Assembly (NCBI GenBank): GCA_026225415.1
Contig: JAMFSS010000006.1
Coordinates: forward strand, 161,046 to 225,045
DNA: 64,000 nt
From: Alphaproteobacteria bacterium
GTDB lineage: Bacteria > Pseudomonadota > Alphaproteobacteria > UBA9219
Direction of reading: 5' to 3'
Part shown: one piece after another, positions 2,384 through 63,630 of the stretch
Layout of the letters: every line of letters starts with the position of its first letter
Numbering within the stretch: position 1 is the stretch's first letter
The notes under the pieces: model-generated
Seen by the model: the letters and a program-made list of their open reading frames with translations, nothing else
What the model was told of the DNA's origin: nothing
The model's database searches: none
Position numbers and translations under genes: made by a program

Positions 2384-2464
2384 GGGGGAGAGAGGGGGGG
2401 GAAAGAGAGGGGTCAGAGCGAAGAGGAAGAAGGGAGAGAGTAAACCCTAGAGCATTTAGAGAGA

Positions 2465-3733: not shown

Positions 3734-4572
3734 TTCAATCTTGTGCGCTCATCATCGGCGCGCGCTTTGATCGAAGCGGAAGCGTTGGGGTATTTGCTTT
3801 TCAGCTCGCCCAGCGTGACGCAGGCATCCGGTATTTTATTGATCTGACCCAACGACATGCCCAGTTTCAACAGGCTGTCGGGCGCTTTGGTGCCGCGCGG
3901 ATTGGTTTGAAACGCATCGGCGAAAGCGACTGCCGATTGGTCGAATTTGGCGCGGACATACAAGGTTTCGCCGTACCAATATTTGGCGTTGTCGATCAAT
4001 TTGTCTTTGGGGTTTTTTTCGATGAATGTTTTGAAAGCGGTTTCGGCGTCGGGATAATTGGCGGCGCGTAATAAACCAAAGGCGCGTTCATATTGTTCTT
4101 CTGTCGTCAGGCCGTAATCGGCGGGTGCGTTGGGCAAAGGGGGCGATTGCGGATTATTCACGCCGCCTGTTACCTTGCCATTCTGCATTTTAATGGCGCC
4201 CAAGGTGCCGTTTTGCTCGATAACGGGTGCGGGCGGTTGTACCACCACCGGAGGTGGGGGTGGCGGGGCCGCTGCTTGTTGTTGCAAACTGACGACTGTG
4301 GATTCCAGTTTGGTCAGACGCGCATCATCATCGGCCTGTAGCCGCTGCATCGCTGCATCGACGCGGCGCACCGCGAATTCGACCTGTTCGATGCGGCCGC
4401 TAAGAGTGCGGAGTTGATCTTCAAGAGTGGTGATGCGTGTTTCTGTGCGCGTGCTTGATGACGCCGCGGGCGGTTGTTGGGGTATGTAGGTGGGCGCGTC
4501 ATCCTGTGCCCATACCGGGGCGGTGGTCAGAAGGAGGACAAGGCCAAGCGCGGAAAAACGGGAAAGGGGCAT
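3718..4572 (-). CDS. cpoB: tol-pal system protein YbgF/CpoB (coiled-coil plus TPR)
   Basis: Signal peptide MPLSRFSALGLVLLLTTAPVWAQ, a coiled-coil segment, a Pro-rich linker and a C-terminal TPR-like region (YWYGETLYVRAKFDQSAVAF). Confidence 0.75.
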   Translation of the reverse strand: MPLSRFSALGLVLLLTTAPVWAQDDAPTYIPQQPPAASSSTRTETRITTLEDQLRTLSGRIEQVEFAVRRVDAAMQRLQADDDARLTKLESTVVSLQQQAAAPPPPPPVVVQPPAPVIEQNGTLGAIKMQNGKVTGGVNNPQSPPLPNAPADYGLTTEEQYERAFGLLRAANYPDAETAFKTFIEKNPKDKLIDNAKYWYGETLYVRAKFDQSAVAFADAFQTNPRGTKAPDSLLKLGMSLGQINKIPDACVTLGELKSKYPNASASIKARADDERTRLKCPAR

Positions 4573-4685
4573 GGGGATTCACGGAACGGGGAAAAGACAA
4601 AGTAACTGTAGCCCATTTTGGGGTGAGGTCAAATGGTGGGGTTACATTTCATCAAGATAGAAGTAGGCGCCTAATAAAAGAAGTA

Positions 4686-4769
4686 ACCCCCCACCGGCAA
4701 AAACTAAGACTTACGCCCCAAAGCGTAAGCCTAAGTTTTTGCTTCCTCCCCCCAAGGGGGGAAGGAAGG
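4686..4769. repeat. ~85 bp double-hairpin intergenic repeat, copy A (second copy at 8434..8516)
   Basis: About 90% identical to 8434..8516. Contains two stem-loops (cttacgc/gcgtaag and cccccc/gggggg). Confidence 0.7.
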
Positions 4770-4770
4770 A

Positions 4771-4800
4771 ACAAAAAACCGGAGACATTTTCATGTCCCC
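4771..4800 (-). terminator. rho-independent terminator for the small minus-strand gene 4840..5073
   Basis: Hairpin ggagacat-tttc-atgtcccc. On the minus strand it is followed by GGTTTTTTGT. Confidence 0.5.
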
Positions 4801-8344: not shown

Positions 8345-8433
8345 GGCAATCCTATGTGTTGGCTCGCGAAGCCTTCGTGGCTTAGGTTCAATCCACAATC
8401 AGAGCATTTCATAAACAAGTGAGGATAATCGAC

Positions 8434-8516
8434 CCCCCACCTGCAAAAACTAAGACTTACGCCCCAAGAGCGTAAGCCTAAGTTTTTTGCTTCCTCCCCC
8501 ACAAGGGGGAGGGAAA
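8434..8516. repeat. ~85 bp double-hairpin repeat, copy B, in the MFP-RND intercistronic gap
   Basis: Near-identical to 4686..4769. Lies in the 230 bp gap between the MFP stop (8574) and the RND start (8344). Confidence 0.7.
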
Positions 8517-21665: not shown

Positions 21666-23263
21666 GGTTTTTCACCGGATGTGGGCGATGCGAAATGTGC
21701 GGCGATCGCGTGAACAGCGTCATCAAGCGTGGCGCGGTTTTGCAATTGGGTGTGCCAGTCCGATAATTTTGTCTGGGTTTCTTCGGGCAAGGTTGTGAAA
21801 TTTTGTAACGCGGCTTCCGCATCATTGGCGTCCAACGCTTGTTCTATGGCGGTGAATTGCGCGTTGTGAAGCGGGTGAACCGAAATCAACGGGCGCATGG
21901 TTTTTTTAATCTGTTGCAGCCATTCTTGTGAATCCGTATCGGGTGCGGTATCGGTTTTGCTTTCTTCTTTCTCCAGACGGGTACGCAATTGGGCGCAGGT
22001 TGGCGCATTCGTCAGTGCTTCAAGTTTGGCCGTTTCTCTTTTCACAATCTCGTCATCGGGCGCGGCTTTGCTGAGTGCGGCAAGTTGCGCCGAAAAATCG
22101 CGCCCCGCATTGGCAGCATCACGCAATTCCCAGAATGCCAAGGTTGCCGCGAATTGTTGCTGATTATTCTGGCCGGTATTTTTCTGGTTTTGCAATTCCG
22201 CAATTTGCGCTTGCAATGTTTTGACGGTATCGGCCAAAGCCGCATTGTCGGTGGTGCCGGTTGTGGGGGCCGCAATTTCGGTCAGGGAATTTATTTTGGT
22301 TTCCAGCGCATCTAACCGATGTTCGACCGCTGCAATGTCTGCGGAAGATGTGGCCGCTGGTAATAACGGTTGAAAAACAGGGCAATGCAGGATGGCATAA
22401 CCACCGGCACAGGCGGCCAGTATCAAACCGGACAGTAGCAAGGGGAAACAGGATTTCTTGCTTTTACAGGCGGCGGTGTTTGTCGGCGCTTCGGCAGCCG
22501 TCGGAACAGTCGTTTCATTTTCTGTCATTGCGGATTCCAGACATAAAAAAATTTCTTCTTCTGTAGGCTTGGCGGCTACCATTAATCGCCGCCAAGGCAG
22601 GCTTTGTAGCACATCTGCCACTGCTTGGCTAAGCCCCACGGCATTGATGCGGTTGCATGCCTGTGTCAGATGGTTTTTTTCGATCAGACCCAACAAAATC
22701 TTCGCGCTGCGCGGCGAAAAAACCGGGATGGATTGGATATCGCCTTGCGCCAAAGCGTCACATGTTGCGGGCGAAAAATTATCGCGTGCCGTCGCCAGAT
22801 AAACAATCCATGACATCAATATATATCCCTGTGTCGCCACTAAGGTGGCCAGCTTGGCGTCGTTCTGGTCGCCCGCGATATGCAACAAAGGTTTGGTTTT
22901 ATCGGTCAGGTTTTGCAAAGCAAGTTTTGCAAGCGCCGCGCTGTCGCCATCGCCGCAATGAATGTTGGTGAAACCCAAAGCGCGCGCCGCCGCGCCGGTC
23001 GATGCGCCCACGCAATAGCAAGGAAGGTCGCGCAACTCTTCTATCGATACCTGAATATCCGCAAGCGTATCCGGCGCGTTGGCCGAGGTGATGAACACCG
23101 CCTGAAAATCACCGGTGGGTCGTGGTGTGTGGGTTGGGGTCAGCGTAAGCAGAGGTTCGATAACGCTGTCATAGCCGCGTCGGGCAAGAAAACGCGCCGC
23201 TCTTTCACTGGCGGATTGCGGACGGGTAAGGAGGATGGTTTTCATAAAGATTAAAGAGAGCAA
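21662..23263 (-). CDS. hemD: uroporphyrinogen-III synthase fused to a HemX-like membrane-anchored coiled-coil domain
   Basis: The N-terminal ~240 aa are HemD-like (MKTILLTRPQ...). Then comes a TM segment (CFPLLLSGLILAACAGGYAIL) and a long coiled-coil tail. Confidence 0.7.
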   Translation of the reverse strand: MLSLIFMKTILLTRPQSASERAARFLARRGYDSVIEPLLTLTPTHTPRPTGDFQAVFITSANAPDTLADIQVSIEELRDLPCYCVGASTGAAARALGFTNIHCGDGDSAALAKLALQNLTDKTKPLLHIAGDQNDAKLATLVATQGYILMSWIVYLATARDNFSPATCDALAQGDIQSIPVFSPRSAKILLGLIEKNHLTQACNRINAVGLSQAVADVLQSLPWRRLMVAAKPTEEEIFLCLESAMTENETTVPTAAEAPTNTAACKSKKSCFPLLLSGLILAACAGGYAILHCPVFQPLLPAATSSADIAAVEHRLDALETKINSLTEIAAPTTGTTDNAALADTVKTLQAQIAELQNQKNTGQNNQQQFAATLAFWELRDAANAGRDFSAQLAALSKAAPDDEIVKRETAKLEALTNAPTCAQLRTRLEKEESKTDTAPDTDSQEWLQQIKKTMRPLISVHPLHNAQFTAIEQALDANDAEAALQNFTTLPEETQTKLSDWHTQLQNRATLDDAVHAIAAHFASPTSGEKP

Positions 23264-23365
23264 GAAGAGGTTAAGACGAGCAAGACCGAGTAAGACCGAG
23301 CAAAATCACAATTTGTGATTTCTCTCGTTCTTTCTCCTCTTTCTCTCTTTCTAGCCCTCTCTTCT
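23264..23365. repeat. polypurine/polypyrimidine imperfect inverted repeat (GA-rich arm, palindromic centre atcacaatttgtgat, TC-rich arm)
   Basis: aaagagagcaagaagagg... / ...cctctttctctctttct between hemC and hemD. Same architecture at the other listed loci. Confidence 0.5.
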
Positions 23366-24307
23366 TTATGCTGCAAATAAATCCGCCGGTGATTTTTTGC
23401 GTAGATTTTGCCCCAGCATTTCGCCAATCGCATCGGCGTCTTGCGGGTTGCCGGTTGCGGCCAGACGGATCAGATCCTTGCCATCGGCACGCGCTACTAA
23501 CGCCTCAATCGCTAACTGGCCCGATGGCAGAAGAATGGCATAAGCACCCGCCGGTGTGTTGCAGGTGCCGTCAATCGCCCGCATAACGGCGCGTTCCGCC
23601 ACAACACAGATATGCGTTTCGGCATGATCAAGCGGTGCCAGCAAGGCGCGGGTTTCGTCATCATTGGCGCGGATTTCAACGCCCAAAGCGCCCTGCGCCG
23701 ATGCGGGCAAAATATCTTTGGTGGAGAAAACCGATGATATGCGCGATTGCATGCTCAGGCGTTCCAAGCCGGCAACGGCCAGCAAGGTGGCATCCGCCAT
23801 GCCTTCTTCCAGTTTTTTAATGCGCGTTTCAACATTGCCGCGCAGAGGGACGATTTTCAGATCAGGGCGCAGCGCCAAGAGTTGCGCCTGACGGCGAAGG
23901 CTCGATGTGCCGATTGTGGCGCCTTTGGGCAGATCGTTTATGGTTGGCGCCTTGGTGCTGATAAACGCATCACGCACATCGCCGCGTTTTAAAATCGCGC
24001 CAATATCCAGATGTGGCGGCAAAACGCTTGCGACGTCTTTTAAAGAATGAACGGCGATATCGATATAATTGCTCAGCAGCGCTTCTTCGATTTCCTTGGT
24101 GAATAATCCTTTATTGCCGCCCATATCGACAAAGCGGCGGTCTTTATGTTCGGGCCGCCAATCGCCGGTCGTGCGAATGGGGATAATTTCAATATCCGTT
24201 TCATCGGAGAAATGGGGATGGGCAGCAACAATAAGCCGTCTGATTTCTTCGGCTTGAATAAGGGCAAGGGGGCTGCCCCGCGTGCCTAAGCGAATCTTTT
24301 TCTTCAT
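23366..24307 (-). CDS. hemC: hydroxymethylbilane synthase (porphobilinogen deaminase)
   Basis: MKKKIRLGTRGSPLALIQAEE N-terminus. 313 aa. Confidence 0.9.
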   Translation of the reverse strand: MKKKIRLGTRGSPLALIQAEEIRRLIVAAHPHFSDETDIEIIPIRTTGDWRPEHKDRRFVDMGGNKGLFTKEIEEALLSNYIDIAVHSLKDVASVLPPHLDIGAILKRGDVRDAFISTKAPTINDLPKGATIGTSSLRRQAQLLALRPDLKIVPLRGNVETRIKKLEEGMADATLLAVAGLERLSMQSRISSVFSTKDILPASAQGALGVEIRANDDETRALLAPLDHAETHICVVAERAVMRAIDGTCNTPAGAYAILLPSGQLAIEALVARADGKDLIRLAATGNPQDADAIGEMLGQNLRKKSPADLFAA

Positions 24308-24325
24308 CTCAAATTCCTACGGCAT

Positions 24326-24457
24326 GTCGCCAATTAAACGATCTTGGGCTGCAAATCGCCGTTTTTCAAATTTTGCAACGCGTGTACGCAAAGTACACTT
24401 GCCTTGCAAAATTTGAAAAAACAACGATTTTCGCCTCAAGCTTGTTTAATTGGCGAC
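24326..24457. repeat. nested palindromic intergenic element, copy 1
   Basis: Outer arms gtcgccaattaaac/gtttaattggcgac. Inner arms ttttcaaattttgcaa/ttgcaaaatttgaaaa. Conserved core aacgcgtgtacgcaaagtacacttgccttg. Homologous to the copies at 32553..32679 and 63500..63577. Confidence 0.7.
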
Positions 24458-26240: not shown

Positions 26241-26336
26241 GAACGAGGTAGGAACGAGATGGAAAGAGAGATAGGCGAGAAAAAAGGAGAATATAGTTTT
26301 TCTCGTTCTATCTCGATTTTCTCCTTCTTTTCTCTT
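26241..26336. repeat. polypurine/polypyrimidine imperfect inverted repeat
   Basis: gaacgaggtaggaacgagatggaaagagagataggcgagaaaaaaggagaa / tttttctcgttctatctcgattttctccttcttttctcttc. Confidence 0.5.
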
Positions 26337-29663: not shown

Positions 29664-30071
29664 TTAAAAACCACCCATCTCCATTATTTTTTGCCATTCA
29701 TCCGTTGTCACAGGCGATACCGATAACCGCCCCTGACGCAACAAAACCATTTCGGCCAATGCGGGCTCGGCCTTGATGGCGGCCAAAGCTACCGGTTTTT
29801 TCATCGGTTTAAGGGGGGCGACCGTGACCATGCCAAATTTACCCTTTTCGTCGCTGGGATCCGGGTGCCACAATTCGATAATCTTCATAAGGCCGACAAC
29901 GGCCAAACCTTCGTTGGAATGATAAAAAAAGGCCTTATCGCTTATTTTCATCGCCTTCATATTATTGTTGGCCAGATAATTCCGCACGCCATTCCATTCG
30001 GTGCGGCCTTCTTTGACCAAAGTTTCCCAGCTATAAGCGCTGGGTTCGGACTTCATAAGCCAGGAGGACAT
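29664..30071 (-). CDS. EVE (PUA-like) domain protein
   Basis: MSSWLMKSEPSAYSWE..., the canonical EVE-domain N-terminus. About 135 aa. Confidence 0.75.
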   Translation of the reverse strand: MSSWLMKSEPSAYSWETLVKEGRTEWNGVRNYLANNNMKAMKISDKAFFYHSNEGLAVVGLMKIIELWHPDPSDEKGKFGMVTVAPLKPMKKPVALAAIKAEPALAEMVLLRQGRLSVSPVTTDEWQKIMEMGGF

Positions 30072-30074
30072 GGG

Positions 30075-30220
30075 GGAAGAAAGTGCGAGAAGAAAGACAG
30101 AGCAAAGTACGAGAAAAAAAGAGGAACAGCAAGAGCCGGTGAGGGCAGCCATTTTTTCTTATCTTTGCCTTCCTTGCTCACCCTTCCTCATTTTTGCTCT
30201 CCTCTTTTCTCGAGCTTTTC
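30075..30220. repeat. polypurine/polypyrimidine imperfect inverted repeat
   Basis: gggggaagaaagtgcgagaagaaagacagagcaaag... / ...ccttccttgctcacccttcctcatttttgctctcctcttttctc. Confidence 0.5.
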
Positions 30221-31222: not shown

Positions 31223-31340
31223 GAGAAGCTGGGGTCAGAGGAAAGAGGGGAAAGATTAGAGGGGAGCAGATAGGGAAACAAGGATTTCTTGTTATCCCTC
31301 AGCTTTACCCTTCTTTGCTCCCCTCTGTCTCCCCCCCTTA
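31223..31340. repeat. polypurine/polypyrimidine imperfect inverted repeat
   Basis: gaggaaagaggggaaagattagaggggagcagatagggaaacaagg / cttgttatccctcagctttacccttctttgctcccctctgtctcccc. Confidence 0.45.
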
Positions 31341-31437
31341 CTCTTCTCTAGCCATAGGAAATTTTCTTTGCTAATTCCTTGTCATAGCCTAGTTTCGGGC
31401 TATCACTCTGTCTTCTGCCTCCTTTTTGGATGATTCC

Positions 31438-32553: not shown

Positions 32554-32679
32554 GAAATCGCCCGATCTTGGACTGCAAATTGCGCTTTCTTCTATTTTTA
32601 CAACGCGTGTATGTTAAATACACTTGCCTTGTAAAAATAGAAGAAATCACAATTTTCGCCTCAAGCTAGGGCGATTTCC
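32553..32679. repeat. nested palindromic intergenic element, copy 2
   Basis: Outer arms ggaaatcgccc/gggcgatttcc. Inner arms cttctatttttacaa/ttgtaaaaatagaag. Core aacgcgtgtatgttaaatacacttgccttg. Immediately after the dnaN stop. Confidence 0.7.
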
Positions 32680-33252: not shown

Positions 33253-33499
33253 GCAAGCCATGTCTTTAAGGAGCGAATTTGAAGGCATAGTAGGAATAGA
33301 GATAGCCCTCTATATGTTCGCCGAAGGATTTGTTCCCCCCGCTGAACGCGTCTTACACGGAAAAGATAAAATTTCTGCGTTTGTCATGTTCGGTTCCGCA
33401 CTTTGTATTCCTGTTGTCCGTCGGGCCTGTCACGTTATCAGACACGGCTTGCAACAACATCCCGCTCCATAAATTTCATCCTCTAACCTCGAGTTTCCT

Positions 33500-38728: not shown

Positions 38729-38833
38729 GGAAACGAAAAATTGGGGAAAAAAGGAATGGGGATATTATGGTATAATGTAAAATAAATCGCTATTATCTTT
38801 TGCGCTCCCGCCTCTTATCCCCTGTCCCCGTCT

Positions 38834-52934: not shown

Positions 52935-53170
52935 AAACAACTCATTGATATATAACGATTTATATTGTTTCGTGAGCGAAACAATAACGCTATCCTTGCT
53001 TTTCTCGCGCCAAAAGCATAAGAATAGCGCCGTTCGGGGGGTGTTCCTCTGCACGTAACTTAAAAACTCACATATGTTCGGCTTTTGCGGTCAATCCCGC
53101 ACTTGCCATCCGGTGCTTGAAATTCAAGTACACAACATATGGTGGTCTAACCGGAAAAGGAAATACGCAC

Positions 53171-53962: not shown

Positions 53963-54073
53963 GTGTAAGTGAGAGAGATAGAAGGAGCGAAGACGGGACA
54001 AGAGCAAAATTTTTCTCTTAATCCCTCTAACCCCTTCTATGCTCCTCTTCCCTCTTTTTATTTGGAGAACCAA
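53963..54073. repeat. polypurine/polypyrimidine imperfect inverted repeat in the rpsB-tsf spacer
   Basis: gtgagagagatagaaggagcgaagacgggacaagagcaaaa / tctcttaatccctctaaccccttctatgctcctcttccctcttt. Confidence 0.45.
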
Positions 54074-54994
54074 ATGACCGAAATCACCGCAACACTGATT
54101 AAAGATTTGCGCGAAAAAACCGGCGCCGGCATGATGGATTGCAAAAAAGCTTTAACTGAAGCCGCAGGCGACATGGATGCCGCTGTGGATTGGCTGCGTA
54201 AAAAAGGCCTGTCGGCTGCCGCCAAAAAATCCGGTCGCGTCGCGGCTGAGGGTTTGGTTGCTGTCGCTTCATCGGGCACGAAGGCCGTGATTGTCGAAAT
54301 CAACGCCGAAACCGATTTCGTCGCGCGCAGCGAACAATTCCAATCTTTCGTTCTGGCTTCGGCCAAGGTTGCGTTGGAAACCGGCGCGGATGCGGAAGCG
54401 TTGAAGACTACCAAACTGGCCGATGGCACAACGGTCGAAGCGTCGCTCACCAATCTGGTTGCCACCATCGGCGAAAATATGGCGCTGCGCCGCGTGGCGC
54501 ATCTGTCGGTATCGCAAGGCATCGTGGCGTCCTATGTGCATAACGCGCTAGCGCCAAACCTTGGCAAAATCGGCGTGTTGGTCGCGCTTGAATCTTCGGC
54601 TGATGCCGCCAAGTTGCAAGAACTCGGCAAGCAAATCGCGATGCATGTCGCAGCATCCCGTCCCGAAGCATTGAGCATCGCCGATGTCGACACCAAATCG
54701 CTCGACCGTGAACGCAACGTGTTGGCCGATCAGGCCCGCGCATCGGGCAAGCCGGAAGAAATCATCGCCAAGATGGTCGATGGCCGCTTGCGTAAATATT
54801 ACGAAGAAGTCGTGTTGATGGAACAGATCTATGTCGTCGACGGTGAAAGCCGCATCGCGCAGGTTGTCGAAAAAGCCTCCAAAACTTTGGGCGCGCCTGT
54901 CAAACTGACCGGCTTTGTGCGTTACCAATTGGGCGAAGGCATTGAAAAGACAGTCGACGATTTTGCTGCCGAAGTCGCTAAAATGGCTTCGTAA
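54074..54994 (+). CDS. tsf: elongation factor Ts
   Basis: [34 protein letters not shown]. Confidence 0.95.
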
Positions 54995-55010
54995 GATTAC
55001 CACGACAAAG

Positions 55011-55048
55011 AAAAACCCCGCATCGGGAAACCGGTGCGGGGTTTTTTA
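55011..55048. terminator. bidirectional rho-independent terminator after tsf
   Basis: AAAAA-ccccgca-tcgggaaaccgg-tgcgggg-TTTTTT. Confidence 0.75.
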
Positions 55049-55486
55049 TCAGGGTTGTGGAAATTCTGGTGATATTTTGCTTGCGCCGGGTCTGGCCGCA
55101 AGATTTTTCAAGTGAAGCCGCATACCGGTAATAAGCATATCGGGTTTTTGAATAATCCCTGCGGGCGGACGGGTTGCATATTCAGGCAAACCGCGAATAT
55201 GCGCCATAATGGTCGAAATATTCGTGGCAGAAATAAAATAGAAATCTATAGTGGGCTGTGTCCGAACGGCAAGTTGGTAAAGATCAACGCCGCCACTGAT
55301 GGCGGAATGAATTCCGCGATAGCTGAAATCCGAAAAAATCACATCATAATCATACGTCATCAGGAAATCGGCGGCTTCCCTATAATTAACGGCTGTGTAA
55401 AGCGTATCATCGGGATAGTTGCGGCCAAAAGACCGGGCACTTGGTTCACGAAGCCCCTTATCATCTTCAACATACAGAACGCGCAT
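55049..55486 (-). CDS. stand-alone response regulator receiver domain protein (CheY-like)
   Basis: MRVLYVEDD, an acidic residue in DVIFSDFS, conserved T (FISATN) and K (IQKPD). Lower-GC locus. Confidence 0.5.
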   Translation of the reverse strand: MRVLYVEDDKGLREPSARSFGRNYPDDTLYTAVNYREAADFLMTYDYDVIFSDFSYRGIHSAISGGVDLYQLAVRTQPTIDFYFISATNISTIMAHIRGLPEYATRPPAGIIQKPDMLITGMRLHLKNLAARPGASKISPEFPQP

Positions 55487-58869: not shown

Positions 58870-58914
58870 AAAGAAATGGGGTTGAGAAAGAAACCTCCCT
58901 CAACCCCTTATCCC

Positions 58915-59857: not shown

Positions 59858-60805
59858 TCAGCTGAATAGGCTCGAAACCGACCGTTCTTGACTAATGCGG
59901 ATGATGGCCTCAGCCATCAAAGGCGCAATGCTGATCTGCTGAATTTTGGCACAGGCCGCAATCGCGGGCGTCGCTTCGATGGAATCCGTGATGATCATTT
60001 TTTCCAAAGCGGATTTCTGGATCCGGTCAACCGCTTCGCCCGACAAAACCCCATGGGAAACATAGGCGGAAACACTCTTGGCTCCAGCTTCCTTCAACGC
60101 GCCTGCGGCATTGCATAAGGTGCCTGCGCTGTCGACAATATCATCCAACATGATGCAATCGCGGCCATCGACATCGCCGATGATATGCATGACTTCGGAT
60201 TCACCGGCTTTTTCGCGGCGTTTATCGATAATCGCCAAACCGGCATCCAGTTTTTTGGCCATCGCGCGGGCGCGCACAACGCCGCCCACATCGGGCGACA
60301 CTATGGTTAATCCTTCCGGCAATTTGCCGTGAACCGATAATGCATCGCGCACATGGCGCACAAAAACAGGCCCCACAAACAGATTATCGACCGGAATATC
60401 GAAGAAACCCTGAATTTGCCCGGCATGTAAATCCAACGTCAAAACGCGGTGCGCACCGGCGGTGGTGATCAAATTGGCGACCAGCTTGGCGGTAATAGGC
60501 GACCGTGAACTTGTTTTACGATCCTGGCGGGCATAACCGTAATAAGGGACAACGACAGTAATGCGGCGTGCCGACGCGCGGCGCAAGGCATCGACCATAA
60601 CCAGCAATTCAATCAATGTATCATTGGCGGGGGCGGATGTCGGCTGGATAATAAAAACATCCTCGCCACGGACATTTTCAAGGATTTCAACGAAAACTTC
60701 CATATCGGCAAAGCGGCGAATGGTGGCGCGGGTCAGCGTGGTGCCCAGACTTTGCGCAATGGCCTCGGCCAGAGGGCGGTTGCTGTTGCCGGCGATAAGC
60801 TTCAT
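59858..60805 (-). CDS. prs: ribose-phosphate pyrophosphokinase
   Basis: [17 protein letters not shown] start. PRPP-binding motif DDIVDSAGT. Confidence 0.9.
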
Positions 60806-61030
60806 GTCCTGTCCTATAATAGGTGGAATATCCGGCGTGGATATATCAGCGTGGAGGGGAAGTGTAAAGAAGGGCGAGAGAAGAGAGGAAGCAGAGGGAG
60901 GGAAGATGAGCAAGGAGAGAAAAAGGTTAAGAACGATGATAGGAGAGATTCAAGGCAATTTCTCTGGGTTTTCCTCCTCGTTGCTCCTTCTTGCTCTTTC
61001 TACTCCCCCCTTCTTTCTGCTTGACCATAT
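60806..61030. repeat. polypurine/polypyrimidine imperfect inverted repeat upstream of prs
   Basis: A GA-rich tract of about 110 nt followed by a TC-rich tract of about 70 nt (…gatgagcaaggagagaaaaagg… / …cctcctcgttgctccttcttgctctttctactcccccc). Confidence 0.45.
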
Positions 61031-61122
61031 CGATACCGGGGGGTATGAGTCCGGCCTTCGCGCAAAAGCCTTTAAAAGCGTGCGCGGTACACAGTTAACG
61101 ATGACATTTGGGAAATTTTTCT

Positions 61123-61449
61123 ATGGCAAACCATAAATCAGCCGCCAAGCGCGCCCGGCAAACAATCAAGCGCAACGAACTGAACCGTTCACGCCGTTCG
61201 GCTATCCGCACCGTGGTCAAGCAAGCCGAAGCTGCCGCAACCGAAGGCGATGCCAAGGCCGCATTGACAACATTGCGCAAGGCAGAATCCAGCATGGCGC
61301 GCGCGGCATCGCGTGGCACGCTTCATTGGAAAACAGCGGCGCGTAAAACATCGCGTCTGGCCAAGGCTGCCAAAGCAGCCAAAGGCACCGAGGTAAAAAC
61401 GGCACCTGTAAAGGCCGCGCCGAAAGCCAAGGCTGCCAAAAAAGCATAA
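61123..61449 (+). CDS. rpsT: 30S ribosomal protein S20 with Lys/Ala-rich C-terminal extension
   Basis: MANHKSAAKRARQTIKRN. Confidence 0.85.
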   Translation: MANHKSAAKRARQTIKRNELNRSRRSAIRTVVKQAEAAATEGDAKAALTTLRKAESSMARAASRGTLHWKTAARKTSRLAKAAKAAKGTEVKTAPVKAAPKAKAAKKA

Positions 61450-61466: not shown

Positions 61467-61520
61467 AAAAACGCCGCGTCTTGAAAAAAGATTTTTTTCG
61501 GGACGCGGCGTTTTTTATTT
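61467..61520 (+). terminator. rho-independent terminator after rpsT
   Basis: 10 bp stem acgccgcgtc/gacgcggcgt followed by TTTTTT. Confidence 0.7.
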
Positions 61521-62009
61521 TTACCTTTTTCTTTTCGTTCTCTTTTTCGTTCTCTTTTTTTCTTCTCTGTTTCTCCGCGCAAAAAAGAAAAAACTTTTGT
61601 CCAGAAATTTCTTCGAGTCATAAAATTTTTTTTATGTCATTTTTGTGACGAGCCTGTGGACAAGTCCATCCGATTTGATCTATGGTTTTTTCTCTTCACT
61701 TGTTGTTTCTCTTGTTGTCCATCTCGGATTTTTTGCAGCGAAGCGGATTCAGTCTATGATTATGAAAAATCTTTCCACGAAAAACATCTTCTCCAAGAAG
61801 CTTTTTGCGAAAAATACTTCATCTCACGCTGTTCTTATTCTTTGCCCCGCAACATCGTCTGATTTTCCTCATACGGCCGGTTTCTAAACTGTCTGTCTCT
61901 TCCACGCTTCCGGAAATTTTCCGGAAGCACCGGTAGTCGTTTTGTCTTTTGCCGTTTCGTCTTTTGTTGAGTGCCTGTCTATCGCGTTTGTTCTGTCAAC
62001 GGAGTAGTG

Positions 62010-63476: not shown

Positions 63477-63499
63477 ACAAAATCTCGCCTGTTGGCCAT

Positions 63500-63577
63500 A
63501 AATTGCGCTTTTTATAGAAAATAAAACGCGCGTACAGGGAGTACGCTTGTCTTCTATTTCTATAAAAAGCGCAATTT
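63500..63577. repeat. nested palindromic intergenic element, copy 3
   Basis: Perfect 21 bp arms aaattgcgctttttatagaaa / tttctataaaaagcgcaattt around core aacgcgcgtacagggagtacgcttgtctt. The core is homologous to copies 1 and 2. Confidence 0.6.
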
Positions 63578-63630
63578 CTGTCACAACATTCGAAATTTTG
63601 CCGCTCTCTATTTTCGAGAGAAGTGCAGGA

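Follow-up and report, generated by a model that had tools for sequence, protein, structure and literature searches.

In-place expansion of purine-to-pyrimidine quasi-palindromes in the intergenic spacers of an alphaproteobacterial genome

The spacer between hemC and hemD in the genome of this uncultured alphaproteobacterium is made up of a GA-rich arm and a TC-rich arm that could pair in a long hairpin, and further spacers of the window, by which we mean the whole stretch of 64,000 nucleotides analysed here, have a similar look. How such tracts arose and whether they matter to the neighbouring genes are the questions raised by this locus. A sequence-only reading had assigned nine spacers to one architecture, consisting of a GA-rich tract, a short centre and a TC-rich tract, and all of the sequences that it described are present where it placed them. 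Two of the nine have a single arm with no partner: the tract at 2384-2460 is GA-rich, and that at 61521-61575 is TC-rich. The elements are named in Table 1, to which a pair scanner added E58, a site absent from the earlier list.

Table 1. Purine-to-pyrimidine (R-to-Y) elements, single arms and associated features, in positions of the window
Feature	Position	Strand	Context and layout
E02	2384..2464	-	Single arm; 81-nt spacer from tilS to the downstream gene, CU-rich on the mRNA strand up to the ATG
E02 tandem array	2384-2412		Period 13
E23	23246..23365	-	Entire 120-nt hemC-to-hemD spacer (flanking genes by Pfam); on the minus (mRNA) strand, GA arm from the hemC stop, central palindrome, CU arm to the hemD ATG
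E23 central palindrome	23303-23321		9 bp, perfect
E23 tandem units	23272-23300		Units of about 10 nt in the CU arm
E26	26241..26336	.	96 nt between the convergent stops of a DUF2336 gene (+) and PBP2 (-); genes by Pfam
E26 core stem	26276-26305		CGAGAAAAA/TTTTTCTCG; distal Y arms U-rich in both directions
E30	30075..30220	-	146-nt spacer from gpsA to the EVE-domain gene; GA arm then CU arm on the mRNA strand
E31	31223..31345	-	About 121-123 nt directly upstream of the gpsA ATG
E38	38729..38833	.	Divergent aroE/response-regulator spacer
E38 purine tract	38729-38762		CU-rich leader of aroE on the minus strand
E38 AT-rich core			Between the tracts; TATAAT at 38770-38775
E38 pyrimidine tract	38805-38833		Leader of the + gene
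E53	53963..54064	+	rpsB-to-tsf intercistronic stem, followed by the U-run CTCTTTTTATTT, a GGAG Shine-Dalgarno and the tsf ATG (54074)
E58	58870..58914	-	Small R-to-Y hairpin filling the rplY-to-pth spacer
E60	60869..61020	.	152-nt R-to-Y tract exactly between two putative divergent promoters
prs promoter (putative)	60840-60868		-35 TTTACA, written on the + strand, 60863-60868; -10 at 60840-60845
rpsT promoter (putative)	61021-61049		-35 TTGACC at 61021-61026; -10 at 61044-61049
E61	61515..61575	+	Single TC-rich arm directly past the rpsT terminator hairpin (61468-61514)
E61 tandem repeat	61532-61559		Exact 12-nt repeat, TTTTCGTTCTCT x2.3

Abundance, polarity and composition of the tracts

In the 64-kb window, 411 stretches of 25 nt were at least 88% purine or pyrimidine, and together they covered 1077 bases; 100 shuffles that preserved dinucleotides gave on average 6.0 such stretches (at most 29) and 52 bases. 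The tracts are far commoner than composition predicts, and the shuffles rule out chance or base composition as their source. Their order is also polarized. With a pair scanner set at 25 nt, at least 84% and a gap of at most 40 nt, eight R-to-Y pairs and no Y-to-R pairs were detected in the 64 kb, while the comparison set of about 1356 kb (other fetched loci, mostly from unrelated genomes) yielded 14 and 4, respectively. In a genome survey (PMC4060949), oligopurine runs were normally represented in most phyla, and the Alphaproteobacteria were not among the moderately over-represented groups listed.

Some tracts and loci were discarded. The purine tracts at 11124-11164 and 4552-4577 are N-terminal coding sequences rich in Leu/Ser codons, not elements, and an apparent excess of tracts in locus L013 came from runs of masked N. 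An assembly artefact was ruled out for E30 and E31, both of which were reproduced exactly by an independent Logan assembly.

Each arm of the large elements consists of GA or CU of low complexity over 45-75 nt; uninterrupted purine runs in the arms reach at most 6-29 nt, and the Y arms contain about 37% C and 8% G. The earlier remark on GAGCAAG-like words was borne out, in that GAGCAA occurs 11 times in the arms where 1.0-1.4 were expected (z 9.7 against mononucleotide and 8.6 against dinucleotide shuffles). The elements take up 1.6% of the bases of the window and hold 11 of its 24 occurrences of GAGCAA/TTGCTC. A second word, GAACGA, is also common to the elements (z 5.3 against dinucleotide shuffles), and GAGTAA variants of GAGCAA are present. 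GAGCAA was rejected as a general ribosome-binding-site word, as just one of its 13 occurrences outside the elements precedes a start codon.

A period of 10 nt runs through the elements. Sequence identity at a lag of 10 nt reached z 4.3, and the purine runs are broken about every 10 nt (z 3.3 for the periodicity of pyrimidine interruptions). Of the 52 TRF rows, 12 fall within the small fraction of bases taken by the elements, and in E23 one arm has a tandem array and the other has none. This enrichment, the lag-10 identity and the one-arm arrays suggest that the tracts grew by local duplication. The only occurrence of the alphaproteobacterial LexA box (GAAC-N7-GAAC) lies in E26 and was judged to be a by-product of an 11-nt repeat.

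The tracts are also placed with respect to the genes. Their arms begin at stop codons and end at ATGs without a Shine-Dalgarno. In the 30 nt before the start, 10 of 62 window genes had at least 75% pyrimidine, one of which was a coding-sequence artefact, so that nine are real; the corresponding number in four relatives was 1 of 84 in total. None of these nine starts has a Shine-Dalgarno, and no start in the window follows an equally purine-rich (at least 75%) stretch of this length. CU leaders that lack a GA partner precede dnaN and dnaA and also occur at E02 and on either side of E38. E02, which likewise has no Shine-Dalgarno, folds at -4.4 kcal/mol (z -0.4, for 2381-2467).

Pairing, folding and symmetry

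Long imperfect RNA hairpins are possible, as the sequence-only reading had proposed, with predicted minimum free energies of -29 to -62 kcal/mol. Its description of the arms as approximate reverse complements was right beyond composition at E23, E26, E31 and E53, and at the other sites the complementarity did not exceed composition. An R arm pairs about equally well with its own Y arm and with that of a different element, and when the arms were shuffled the sequences continued to fold, at -22 to -59 kcal/mol. These cross-pairing and arm-shuffle controls, together with alignment, rule out sequence-specific inverted repeats at every site, and leave them for the four elements.

E23 folds at -49.3 kcal/mol on the sense strand (z -4.9) and at -41.0 on the antisense strand (z -4.3), and contains an inverted repeat of 49 nt with 82% identity to itself. 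At its base, CATAAAG (23243-23249) and CTTTATG (23364-23370) form a 7-bp helix joining the hemC stop with the hemD start. The two strands of E26 fold at -36.2 and -28.7 kcal/mol (z -3.5 and -3.2). E31 reached -58.2 (sense) and -62.3 kcal/mol (antisense), with z -3.6 and -4.1. It adjoins a conserved promoter-like or operator-like block (31346-31399), lying on its downstream side, and is therefore probably the 5' UTR of gpsA. The sense strand of E53 folds at -28.8 kcal/mol, its antisense strand at -38.5. The antisense strand was thus the better folder at E31 and E53, as it was in the rpsB-tsf hairpin of the relative L091, and there is no general G.U signature of selection on RNA.

Three further two-armed sites are different. 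E30 and E60 gave z -0.2 to -1.8 against arm-shuffled or fully shuffled sequences, with no excess. In E30 a stem is possible (-47.4 kcal/mol, z -1.6) but not beyond composition (z -0.4 to -0.7 against arm shuffles), and E60 (z -1.8 and -1.5) folds no better than shuffles. E60, with a conserved promoter-like block on either side, is probably untranscribed. E38 had been listed as a hairpin-type site and does have two tracts, but these flank an AT-rich core and no hairpin was found there (fold z -0.8; alignment of the R arm to the reverse-complemented Y arm z 0.0); each arm belongs to a different transcript.

No element matched Rfam 15 at the gathering threshold, where the window gave only one tRNA and the rpsB leader. 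In a search by E-value, the sole likeness of the elements was to miRNA precursors of plants and animals, far below threshold, and such precursors are long hairpins of a generic kind. The consensus terminator scan flagged no large element, only the small hairpin at 58907-58878 on the minus strand, within E58. The promoter and terminator consensus scans gave about as many sites as the shuffles, apart from one region in which terminators exceeded the expectation by about 2 sd, and the promoter scan, too, flagged no large element. Stems are present in the elements, and a U-rich tract was seen in E53, which closes with CTCTTTTTATTT, and in the distal arms of E26. Ordinary G+C-rich terminators occur in this genome as well, such as those at 55010-55060 and 61468-61514.

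The triplex (H-DNA) proposed earlier requires mirror repeats. The best mirror arms were 6-13 nt long, and in 14 of 16 arms mirror symmetry was not above the arm-shuffled expectation (p at least 0.05), with one arm of E23 alone reaching p 0.01. H-DNA is therefore not specifically favoured. The elements do share with H-DNA and intrastrand triplex motifs the adjacency of strand-segregated purine and pyrimidine blocks in intergenic DNA, but the intrastrand motifs (Holder et al. 2015, PMC4666352) are built of three consecutive compatible blocks, each 6-15 nt long, and loops of 1-6 nt, compared to two arms of 45-75 nt here. A separate repeat, at 4740-4785 and 8490-8515, resembles the intrastrand motif more than the elements do.

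Turnover among relatives

The nearest relatives, L082 and L094, come from one sample (ERZ12298644) and have 84-89% nucleotide identity to the window. At the E26 site of L094 the two stop codons abut (TAATTA), leaving 0 nt compared to 96 nt in the window. At the E30 site, L082 (89% in GpsA) has an ATGA stop/start overlap instead of 146 nt, and in L083, a 72% relative, the genes abut. L082 has at the E31 site a 47-nt leader after the same conserved block, compared to about 121-123 nt. At the E23 site, L094 has a miniature R-to-Y hairpin of 45 nt instead of 120 nt, the outer parts of which align with the ends of E23. The spacer was thus larger in the window than in the nearest relative at all four comparable sites. 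A miniature purine-then-pyrimidine pattern was also found in the gpsA leaders of L001, L002 and L003.

Since the ends of the 45-nt miniature align with those of the 120-nt E23, we suggest growth in place. The lengths at the hemC-hemD site form a graded series of 34, 45 and 120 nt, and the element appears to have grown from its interior. In L094 the stem is better on the sense strand (-16.7 kcal/mol) than on the antisense strand (-11.8), as in the window (-51.4 compared to -43.7). A metagenome scan with HemC gave a closest match of 73%; a protein search gave a 92% relative. One search with GpsA had uncultured Rhodospirillaceae-like MAGs as its best matches, at 67-71%.

L083 has none of the elements, and an ordinary 115-nt spacer at the E38 site. 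Between the window and L089, R/Y elements are found in both directions at sites where the other has none. At the E58 site L089 has a longer R-to-Y element of 103 nt containing GAGCAAA, and at the E60 site its promoter hexamers are conserved with variable 17-nt spacers, the promoters being separated by 113 nt of ordinary sequence. Presence/absence polymorphism, which the earlier reading had proposed to check, is therefore seen between the window and L082, L094 and L089. The absence or much smaller size of the orthologous spacers in L082 and L094 and the lack of elements in L083 point to origin in place and rapid turnover.

At the rpsB-tsf site, a long hairpin directly after the rpsB stop occurs in five of six genomes (the window, L089, L090, L091 and L093; L092 is without it). 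In the four relatives the spacer with short flanks folds at -40 to -50 kcal/mol, and two of these hairpins have a T-run. The sense strand is better through G.U pairs in L089 (-34.7 compared to -13.8 kcal/mol) and L093 (-41.0 compared to -24.5), a preference that was seen neither in the window nor in L091. E53 occupies the place of this terminator-like hairpin conserved in relatives. The earlier idea of an intercistronic element is thus reasonable at rpsB-tsf, where the position of the hairpin is kept. It does not extend to one RNA mechanism for all sites, because E60 appears to lie upstream of both promoters, the arms of E38 are split between transcripts and E02 and E61 are one-armed.

Origin and possible roles of the elements

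It is well supported that the elements are lineage-specific, low-complexity R-to-Y quasi-palindromes that expanded in place and are not copies of a mobile element. Their building units are short tandem duplications of about 10 nt carrying GAGCAA or GAACGA, and they expand within spacer DNA that is free of other constraints, so that they span from one stop, promoter or start to the next such signal. On either strand the purine-rich arm lies to the left and the pyrimidine-rich arm to the right; a transcript that runs through an element, whichever strand is read, therefore has a GA arm, a short loop and a CU arm. GA and CU arms can pair in any combination and in many registers, by A-U, G-C and G-U pairs, so that substitutions and indels do not abolish a long stem; with this register-free pairing the arms can drift and lengthen independently.

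When transcribed, the stems may act as intercistronic or 3'-end RNA structures reaching from stop to start. E26 and E53 could stand in for a hairpin that has a U-rich 3' side and serves as a bidirectional terminator or as an attenuator. At hemC-hemD and gpsA-EVE, the base of the stem would join the region after the stop to the Shine-Dalgarno-less region before the ATG; a ribosome terminating on the upstream gene would melt this base and expose the downstream start, and such coupling by a stem would replace the stop/start overlaps of the relatives. E60 and E38, which no single transcript spans, and the single arms E02 and E61 are best taken to have come from this expansion, too, without having an RNA role. 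We give this explanation as a whole, expansion in place together with the RNA role deduced for the stems, a probability of about 0.45. We counted in favour of the role the position of the rpsB-tsf hairpin, the sense preference at hemC-hemD, the stop-start helix, the ends of the arms and the 8:0 polarity. Against the explanation, a burst of expansion in one lineage is equally expected from a purely mutational, non-adaptive process, and independent local slippage does not explain the shared words and the 10-nt period. E30 and E60 fold no better than shuffles, and no large element was flagged as a terminator.

Two known systems come close. The first is the bidirectional terminator, together with the attenuator that reportedly lies between rpsB and tsf in E. 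coli. Like the elements, these have the purine (A-rich) side 5' and the pyrimidine (U-rich) side 3' on both strands, and the polarity of eight R-to-Y pairs to none is that of the A-tract, stem and U-tract of bidirectional terminators. They occupy the same positions as E26 (convergent genes) and E53 (rpsB-tsf). However, terminators have a short G+C-rich stem, whereas the elements have long GA/CU arms with a clean U-tract solely at E53. The second is stem-masked translational coupling, in which long-range stems mask a downstream start, as in the rpmI-rplT operon and the MS2 coat-replicase pair. The likeness is that the stem base links the region after the stop to that before an ATG lacking a Shine-Dalgarno, with the stop and start codons of E23 in one 7-bp helix. 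In contrast, the predicted stems of the elements are huge, of low complexity and in place of the overlaps or short spacers of relatives.

A bolder extension of this explanation, which we consider unlikely but worth stating, is that such composition-coded "zipper" stems arise by slippage from nothing or from a seed of 20 nt, work on despite drift, and have repeatedly replaced gene overlaps and zero-length convergent spacers as couplers and bidirectional terminators. The shared words and the 10-nt phase would then point to a lineage-specific factor, mutational or a binding protein, that drives or uses the stems.

Alternatively, the elements could be neutral by-products without a function of their own, a reading that we regard as somewhat doubtful and still to be taken seriously. 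Slippage and quasi-palindrome template switching would inflate small R/Y seeds, such as the A/T tracts of terminators or short leaders, until growth halts at coding sequences, promoters or ribosome-binding sites. The polarity would come from the seeds, and selection against Shine-Dalgarno-like stretches of purines ahead of starts would maintain it. This would account for the burst in a single genome, with the larger spacer in the window at every comparable site, for the turnover in both directions relative to L089, and for the tandem arrays within arms, one of them exact. Such mutagenesis shares with the elements the internal tandem units and the fast change of length between close relatives. 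E31 and E53 have no sense-strand G.U signature, E30, E38 and E60 do not go beyond composition, and one element sits in an apparently untranscribed gap between promoters. However, the 8:0 polarity and the exact filling from stop to start demand some selective filter, and no seed is seen in the relatives at E26 (0 nt) and E30 (overlap). The hairpins at hemC-hemD and rpsB-tsf persist across lineages despite sequence change, and shared GAGCAA and GAACGA are unexpected from independent slippage. We know of no slippage or template-switch process that gives a gene-relative R-to-Y polarity, the same words and a 10-nt period at many loci.

It is improbable that the CU tract upstream of the start is the functional unit, either as an unstructured landing pad, poor in G and bound by ribosomal protein S1, for Shine-Dalgarno-independent initiation or as a C-rich, G-poor Rho rut site attenuating transcription, with the GA tract as an optional mask. 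The nine pyrimidine-rich starts, none of them with a Shine-Dalgarno, the lack of purine-rich counterparts and the leaders without a GA partner would fit this, and the Y arms have the C-rich, G-poor composition typical of rut sites. On the other hand, no gene follows the CU tracts of E26, the Y arm of E60 precedes a -35 hexamer and is not part of a leader, and the orthologous genes of relatives do without such leaders.

Action at the DNA level appears very improbable. Non-B structures (cruciform, H-DNA or A-like DNA), or arrays of GAGCAA-type words that are phased at 10 bp and bind a regulatory or nucleoid protein along a single helical face, would affect promoters or supercoiling. The 10-nt periodicity, the specific recurring words, inverted repeats that fold about equally on both strands, and the position of E60 between divergent promoters, where negative supercoiling builds up, are in line with this, but mirror symmetry is mostly at chance level, the arms are too imperfect for ready cruciform extrusion, neither a candidate binding protein nor a consensus site is on record, and most elements lie inside transcription units and not at promoters.

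An old MITE- or REP-like family decayed mainly by transitions, so that R stayed R and Y stayed Y, is hardly credible: the precise intergenic presence and absence among close relatives, the inverted-repeat architecture and the shared short words (GAGTAA fits C-to-T decay of GAGCAA) recall bacterial repeats of the Correia, ERIC, REPIN and RPE type, which are likewise intergenic, variable in presence and form hairpins when transcribed, but the best match between any two elements is 29 nt at 83% (all-against-all blastn with the low-complexity filter off), arm-to-arm Smith-Waterman z is mostly below 2, there are no common termini or target-site duplications (E30 and E31 against L082, E26 and E23 against L094), the hemC-hemD sites are graded from smaller precursors and not empty or filled, E30 and E26 were gained since a split at about 15% nucleotide divergence and yet are no closer to any other copy, and genuine dispersed repeat families in the same window keep 73-81% identity. 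The MITE-like family of the earlier reading is therefore rejected.

The tracts are a hazard for annotation, because they lack stop codons and so produce spurious long ORFs and false N-terminal extensions, and because they can be mistaken for mobile elements. If they are neutral, they mark a lineage-specific mutational process with an unexplained gene-relative polarity. If the stems function, they would show plainly how, in nature, structured regulatory RNA can emerge and lengthen on the spot within a short evolutionary distance, by steps that the graded series at one site displays, and would represent a design in which pairing at the level of composition tolerates both substitutions and indels.

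Purine and pyrimidine tracts and their pairing

The spacer tracts picked out in the sequence-only reading, a GA-rich arm followed by a CT-rich arm (R->Y), are present in place and far exceed what base composition predicts. With tracts defined as 25-nt windows of at least 88% purine or pyrimidine, the 64 kb covered by all our window counts hold 411 such windows over 1077 bases, whereas 100 dinucleotide-preserving shuffles averaged 6.0 windows, never more than 29, over 52 bases. A pair scanner returned 8 R->Y and 0 Y->R pairs in this stretch, and 14 and 4, respectively, in about 1356 kb of other loci from mostly unrelated genomes, where the pairs appear unrelated when inspected. The two-arm architecture had been proposed for nine sites; it did not hold at E02 and E61, which have one arm each, and the small E58 was absent from that list. 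Two further tracts proved to be ordinary N-terminal coding sequence rich in Leu and Ser codons.

Positions of the R->Y elements and other features (z, fold against full dinucleotide shuffles, two values for two strands)
Feature	Positions	Setting	z	Nearest relative	Window
E02	2384-2464	single arm	-0.4
E23	23246-23365	hemC/hemD	-4.9 / -4.3	45-nt miniature R->Y hairpin	120 nt
E26	26241-26336	stops of PBP2 and DUF2336 genes	-3.5 / -3.2	abutting, TAATTA, 0 nt	96 nt
E30	30075-30220	gpsA/EVE gene	-1.6 / -1.7	ATGA overlap	146 nt
E31	31223-31345	gpsA leader, after common conserved block	-3.6 / -4.1	47 nt	121 nt
E38	38729-38833	aroE/response regulator	-0.8
E53	53963-54064	rpsB/tsf	-2.4 / -4.4
E58	58870-58914	rplY/pth, small R->Y hairpin
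E60	60869-61020	prs/rpsT	-1.8 / -1.5
E61	61515-61575	single arm
Rejected tracts	11124-11164, 4552-4577	coding sequence
ORFs crossing elements	29664-30152, 53969-54994, 60561-61136, 2036-2443
~110-nt palindromic repeat	24320-24440, 32556-32672, 63490-63600
~80-nt repeat	4686-4770, 8431-8515
CRISPR-DR57 match	8482-8516
tRNA gene	12806-12889
tRNA gene and low-GC stretch	12806-16000
Fic-domain gene	13217-14338
DnaA-box-like repeat	60823-60847
dnaA	61971-63476
Region 5' of dnaA	61509-61970
22-bp palindromic block	31357-31378	dnaN/gpsA
metK leader tract	33470-33499
rpsB leader (RF01815)	53067-53166 (+)

As judged from sequence, no element is a copy of another (best blastn match among them, 29 nt at 83%); they nonetheless have three hallmarks in common. 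The recurrence of GAGCAAG-like words was borne out: 7 arms together hold 11 copies of GAGCAA, where 1.0-1.4 would be expected (z 9.7 and 8.6), GAACGA is found 7 times in arms (z 6.2 and 5.3), and 11 of the 24 GAGCAA/TTGCTC words of the window lie inside the elements, which occupy 1.6% of its bases. Sequence identity recurs with a period of 10 nt (z 4.3), and so do the pyrimidines that interrupt the purine arms (z 3.3). Twelve of the 52 TRF rows fall in elements, E61 having an exact 12-mer x2.3 (61532-61559), and arrays may sit in one arm only, as do the GAGCAAGACC-type units in E23.

Long imperfect RNA hairpins had been predicted, and every two-arm element does fold into a long stem by computation (-24 to -62 kcal/mol). 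Much of this pairing is compositional, as three controls show. A purine arm pairs with another element's pyrimidine arm about as strongly as with its own. The E23 purine arm scored -38.2 kcal/mol against its own partner and between -36 and -40 against the pyrimidine arms of E26, E30 and E60, and the E60 purine arm reached -78.8 against the E30 pyrimidine arm. After arm shuffling, the native fold was clearly superior only in E23 (z -3.2, -4.2) and E31 (z -4.3, -2.9), marginally so in E26 and one strand of E53, and without advantage in E30, E38 and E60. Local alignment of the purine arm with the reverse-complemented pyrimidine arm gave z of 3.7 in E23, 2.6 in E26 and 1.9 in E31, and at most 1.1 in all others. 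The claim that the arms are approximate reverse complements therefore stands for E23, E26, E31 and E53, real imperfect palindromes by their dinucleotide-shuffle scores, each with a short perfect core (AAATCACAA/TTGTGATTT at 23303-23321 in E23); the remaining elements are purine-then-pyrimidine through composition only. Any GA arm pairs physically with any CU arm in silico, and a long stem therefore forms irrespective of register or exact sequence. Rfam gave no match for the elements at the gathering threshold; below it they resemble eukaryotic miRNA precursors generically only.

Gene context and neighbouring features

The elements occupy whole spacers. Read along the mRNA, the GA arm starts at the upstream stop codon for hemC, gpsA, rpsB and both convergent genes at E26, and the CU arm terminates at a downstream ATG without a Shine-Dalgarno for hemD, the EVE-domain gene and gpsA; tsf, which keeps GGAG, is the exception. 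The base of the E23 stem contains a 7-bp helix (CATAAAG/CTTTATG) that includes both the hemC stop and the hemD start. With gene starts assigned by ORF logic and ortholog comparison, at least 75% pyrimidine in the 30 nt before the start was found at 10 of 62 window starts, one being a coding-sequence artefact, and at 0/21, 1/20, 0/21 and 0/22 starts in four relatives. The same purine threshold was reached before none of the 62 starts and after five stop codons.

One shared transcript for every site does not fit E60 and E38. E60 exactly fills the interval between a promoter-like block for prs (TTTACA-N17-TATATC) and another for rpsT (TTGACC-N17-TATGAG), both assigned, like the promoter at E31, from conservation patterns. 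A relative at ~77% nt identity (L089) keeps the hexamers of both blocks with variable spacers and lacks E60; its blocks are 113 nt apart, with ordinary sequence in between. The tracts of E38 lie on either side of an AT-rich core containing TATAAT and are therefore leaders of two divergent genes.

Stop codons are absent from tracts made only of purines or only of pyrimidines, and the elements are therefore crossed by long spurious ORFs and by erroneous N-terminal extensions, for example a 26-residue hydrophobic 'signal peptide' of the EVE-domain protein and a JGI call of the L089 Tsf that is 8 codons too long.

Other repeats were also seen. A distinct palindromic family of ~110 nt (three copies, 73% mean column identity, core ACAACGCGTGTA...TACACTTGCCTTG) is found in one divergent, one co-directional and one convergent spacer, and looks genuinely REP/MITE-type because it keeps clear homology, unlike the GA/CT elements. 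The two-copy ~80-nt repeat, with a nearly identical 60-nt stretch, terminates in a pyrimidine-purine-purine block, CCTCCCCC-AA-GGGGGGAAGG(AAGG), resembling short intrastrand triplex motifs (PMC4666352); a sub-threshold Rfam match to CRISPR-DR57 lies at one copy. A low-GC stretch (46-48% vs ~53%) comes after the tRNA gene; its spacers are long and AT-rich, it includes a Fic-domain gene (GC3 0.38), and it may be an integrated island. A DnaA-box-like direct repeat of period 14 (GTGGAATATCC / GTGGATATATC) overlaps the inferred prs promoter, and the 450 nt 5' of dnaA are T-rich with several short tandem repeats. The palindromic block GGAAATTTTCTTTGCTAATTCC, kept down to 67% GpsA identity (L001, L002, L003, L082, L083), is probably a promoter or operator common to the divergent dnaN and gpsA. 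A pyrimidine-rich tract with the word CCTCTAACCTC is common to the metK leaders of the window and a 68% relative (L001 8618-8766, ~110 nt) and may be a conserved leader element; Rfam gave no match in the window copy, the one scanned.

Turnover among relatives

The GTDB representatives do not include the source genome; the closest GpsA matches were from uncultured Rhodospirillaceae-like MAGs (67-71%), and an independent Logan assembly reproduced E30 and E31 exactly. The nearest relatives found, L082 and L094, are both contigs of sample ERZ12298644 (84-89% nt identity). Presence/absence polymorphism, proposed earlier as a check, was found: elements are missing or smaller in L082, L094 and L083, the last (syntenic, 72%) having none of them, and L089 differs both ways. 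At rplY-pth, an R->Y element of 103 nt with GAGCAAA is particular to L089, the window having just 45 nt there, and the rplY leader of L089 has a purine tract that the window lacks. The E26 difference from L094 is a gain in the window or a loss in L094, the outgroup gene order being different. The hemC-hemD miniature of the relative, GAAAAGGAAAGGTAGAAAGAAAG-CCC-CTTTCTTTTTCTATCTTTC-ATG, aligns by its outer parts with the ends of E23, and therefore the extra ~75 nt are interior to E23; in a 76% relative (L095) this spacer is 34 nt.

A long hairpin lies directly 3' of the rpsB stop in 5 of 6 genomes (the window and 4 of 5 relatives), each with its own repeat units and two followed by a T-run. In L090 (9909-9990, 84% Tsf identity) it consists of 7-nt GGGACAR / CCCTGTY units and then TTTTTT, and thus one site carries different low-complexity units in each lineage. 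Owing to G.U pairs, the sense strand folds much better than the antisense in L089 (-34.7 vs -13.8 kcal/mol) and L093 (-41.0 vs -24.5 kcal/mol), which argues for RNA-level selection; the antisense is superior in the window and L091, both of GA/CU type. At hemC-hemD, the sense strand is superior in the window and L094. The suggested intercistronic role is reasonable for the rpsB-tsf hairpin and probably does not extend to E60 and E38, which are outside a single transcript. The rpsB leader (46.3 bits, gathering score 40) lies upstream of rpsB, which places the true start of this gene 3' of the TTG (53117) given in the ORF list.

Origin and possible roles

The elements are shown to be lineage-specific, fast in turnover and internally repetitive without mutual homology, and growth of at least one from a smaller R->Y precursor at its own site is likewise shown. 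Others are present where relatives have zero spacer. Their origin was probably in-place expansion rather than transposition. We prefer to combine this growth with a role as RNA stems where transcribed, at a probability of about 0.45. A purely neutral by-product of a mutational process is less likely, though it would account for the burst within one genome, for a sense strand without a general signature, for elements due to composition only and for E60, which appears untranscribed; the 8:0 polarity, the rise of elements from zero-length spacers and the common words with a 10-nt period are not easily explained by it. It is improbable that the CU arms serve as leaders, as an S1 landing pad or Rho loading site, because this accounts for single arms but fails for E26 and E60. 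Even less credit can be given to a DNA-level structure or protein array, which the 10-bp phasing and E60 might suggest, but which has no known binder. H-DNA requires mirror symmetry, and the triplex potential claimed earlier was not supported: 14 of 16 arms were no more symmetric than expected from arm shuffles, and p of 0.01 was reached in only one arm, of E23. The diverged MITE-like family also suggested can practically be dismissed, since tests of homology, termini, target duplication and graded series contradict a decayed MITE.

The elements are outside MITE/REP families, H-DNA motifs and every Rfam family. Prokaryotic surveys exist for oligopurine tracts and intrastrand triplex motifs (PMC4060949, PMC4666352); oligopurine runs are normally represented in most phyla, and the Alphaproteobacteria are not among the over-represented groups listed (PMC4060949). 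No description of the R->Y spacer architecture was found in the literature searched, these surveys included. As working analogues, bidirectional intrinsic terminators, intercistronic attenuator hairpins and coupling stems masking a downstream start come closest; the elements differ from all of these in their very long, low-complexity, strand-segregated arms and very fast evolution in place.

Under in-place growth with an RNA role, the transcribed stems would be intercistronic or 3'-end structures. E26 and E53 would occupy the expected place of a bidirectional terminator or attenuator, and the universal R->Y polarity agrees with terminators of this kind, polarised as A-tract, stem and U-tract. 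In E23 and E30, the stem would join the post-stop region to a start without a Shine-Dalgarno, the upstream terminating ribosome would melt the stem base, and downstream initiation would depend on that melting. We suggest that this stem coupling may stand in for the stop/start overlap coupling of the relatives.
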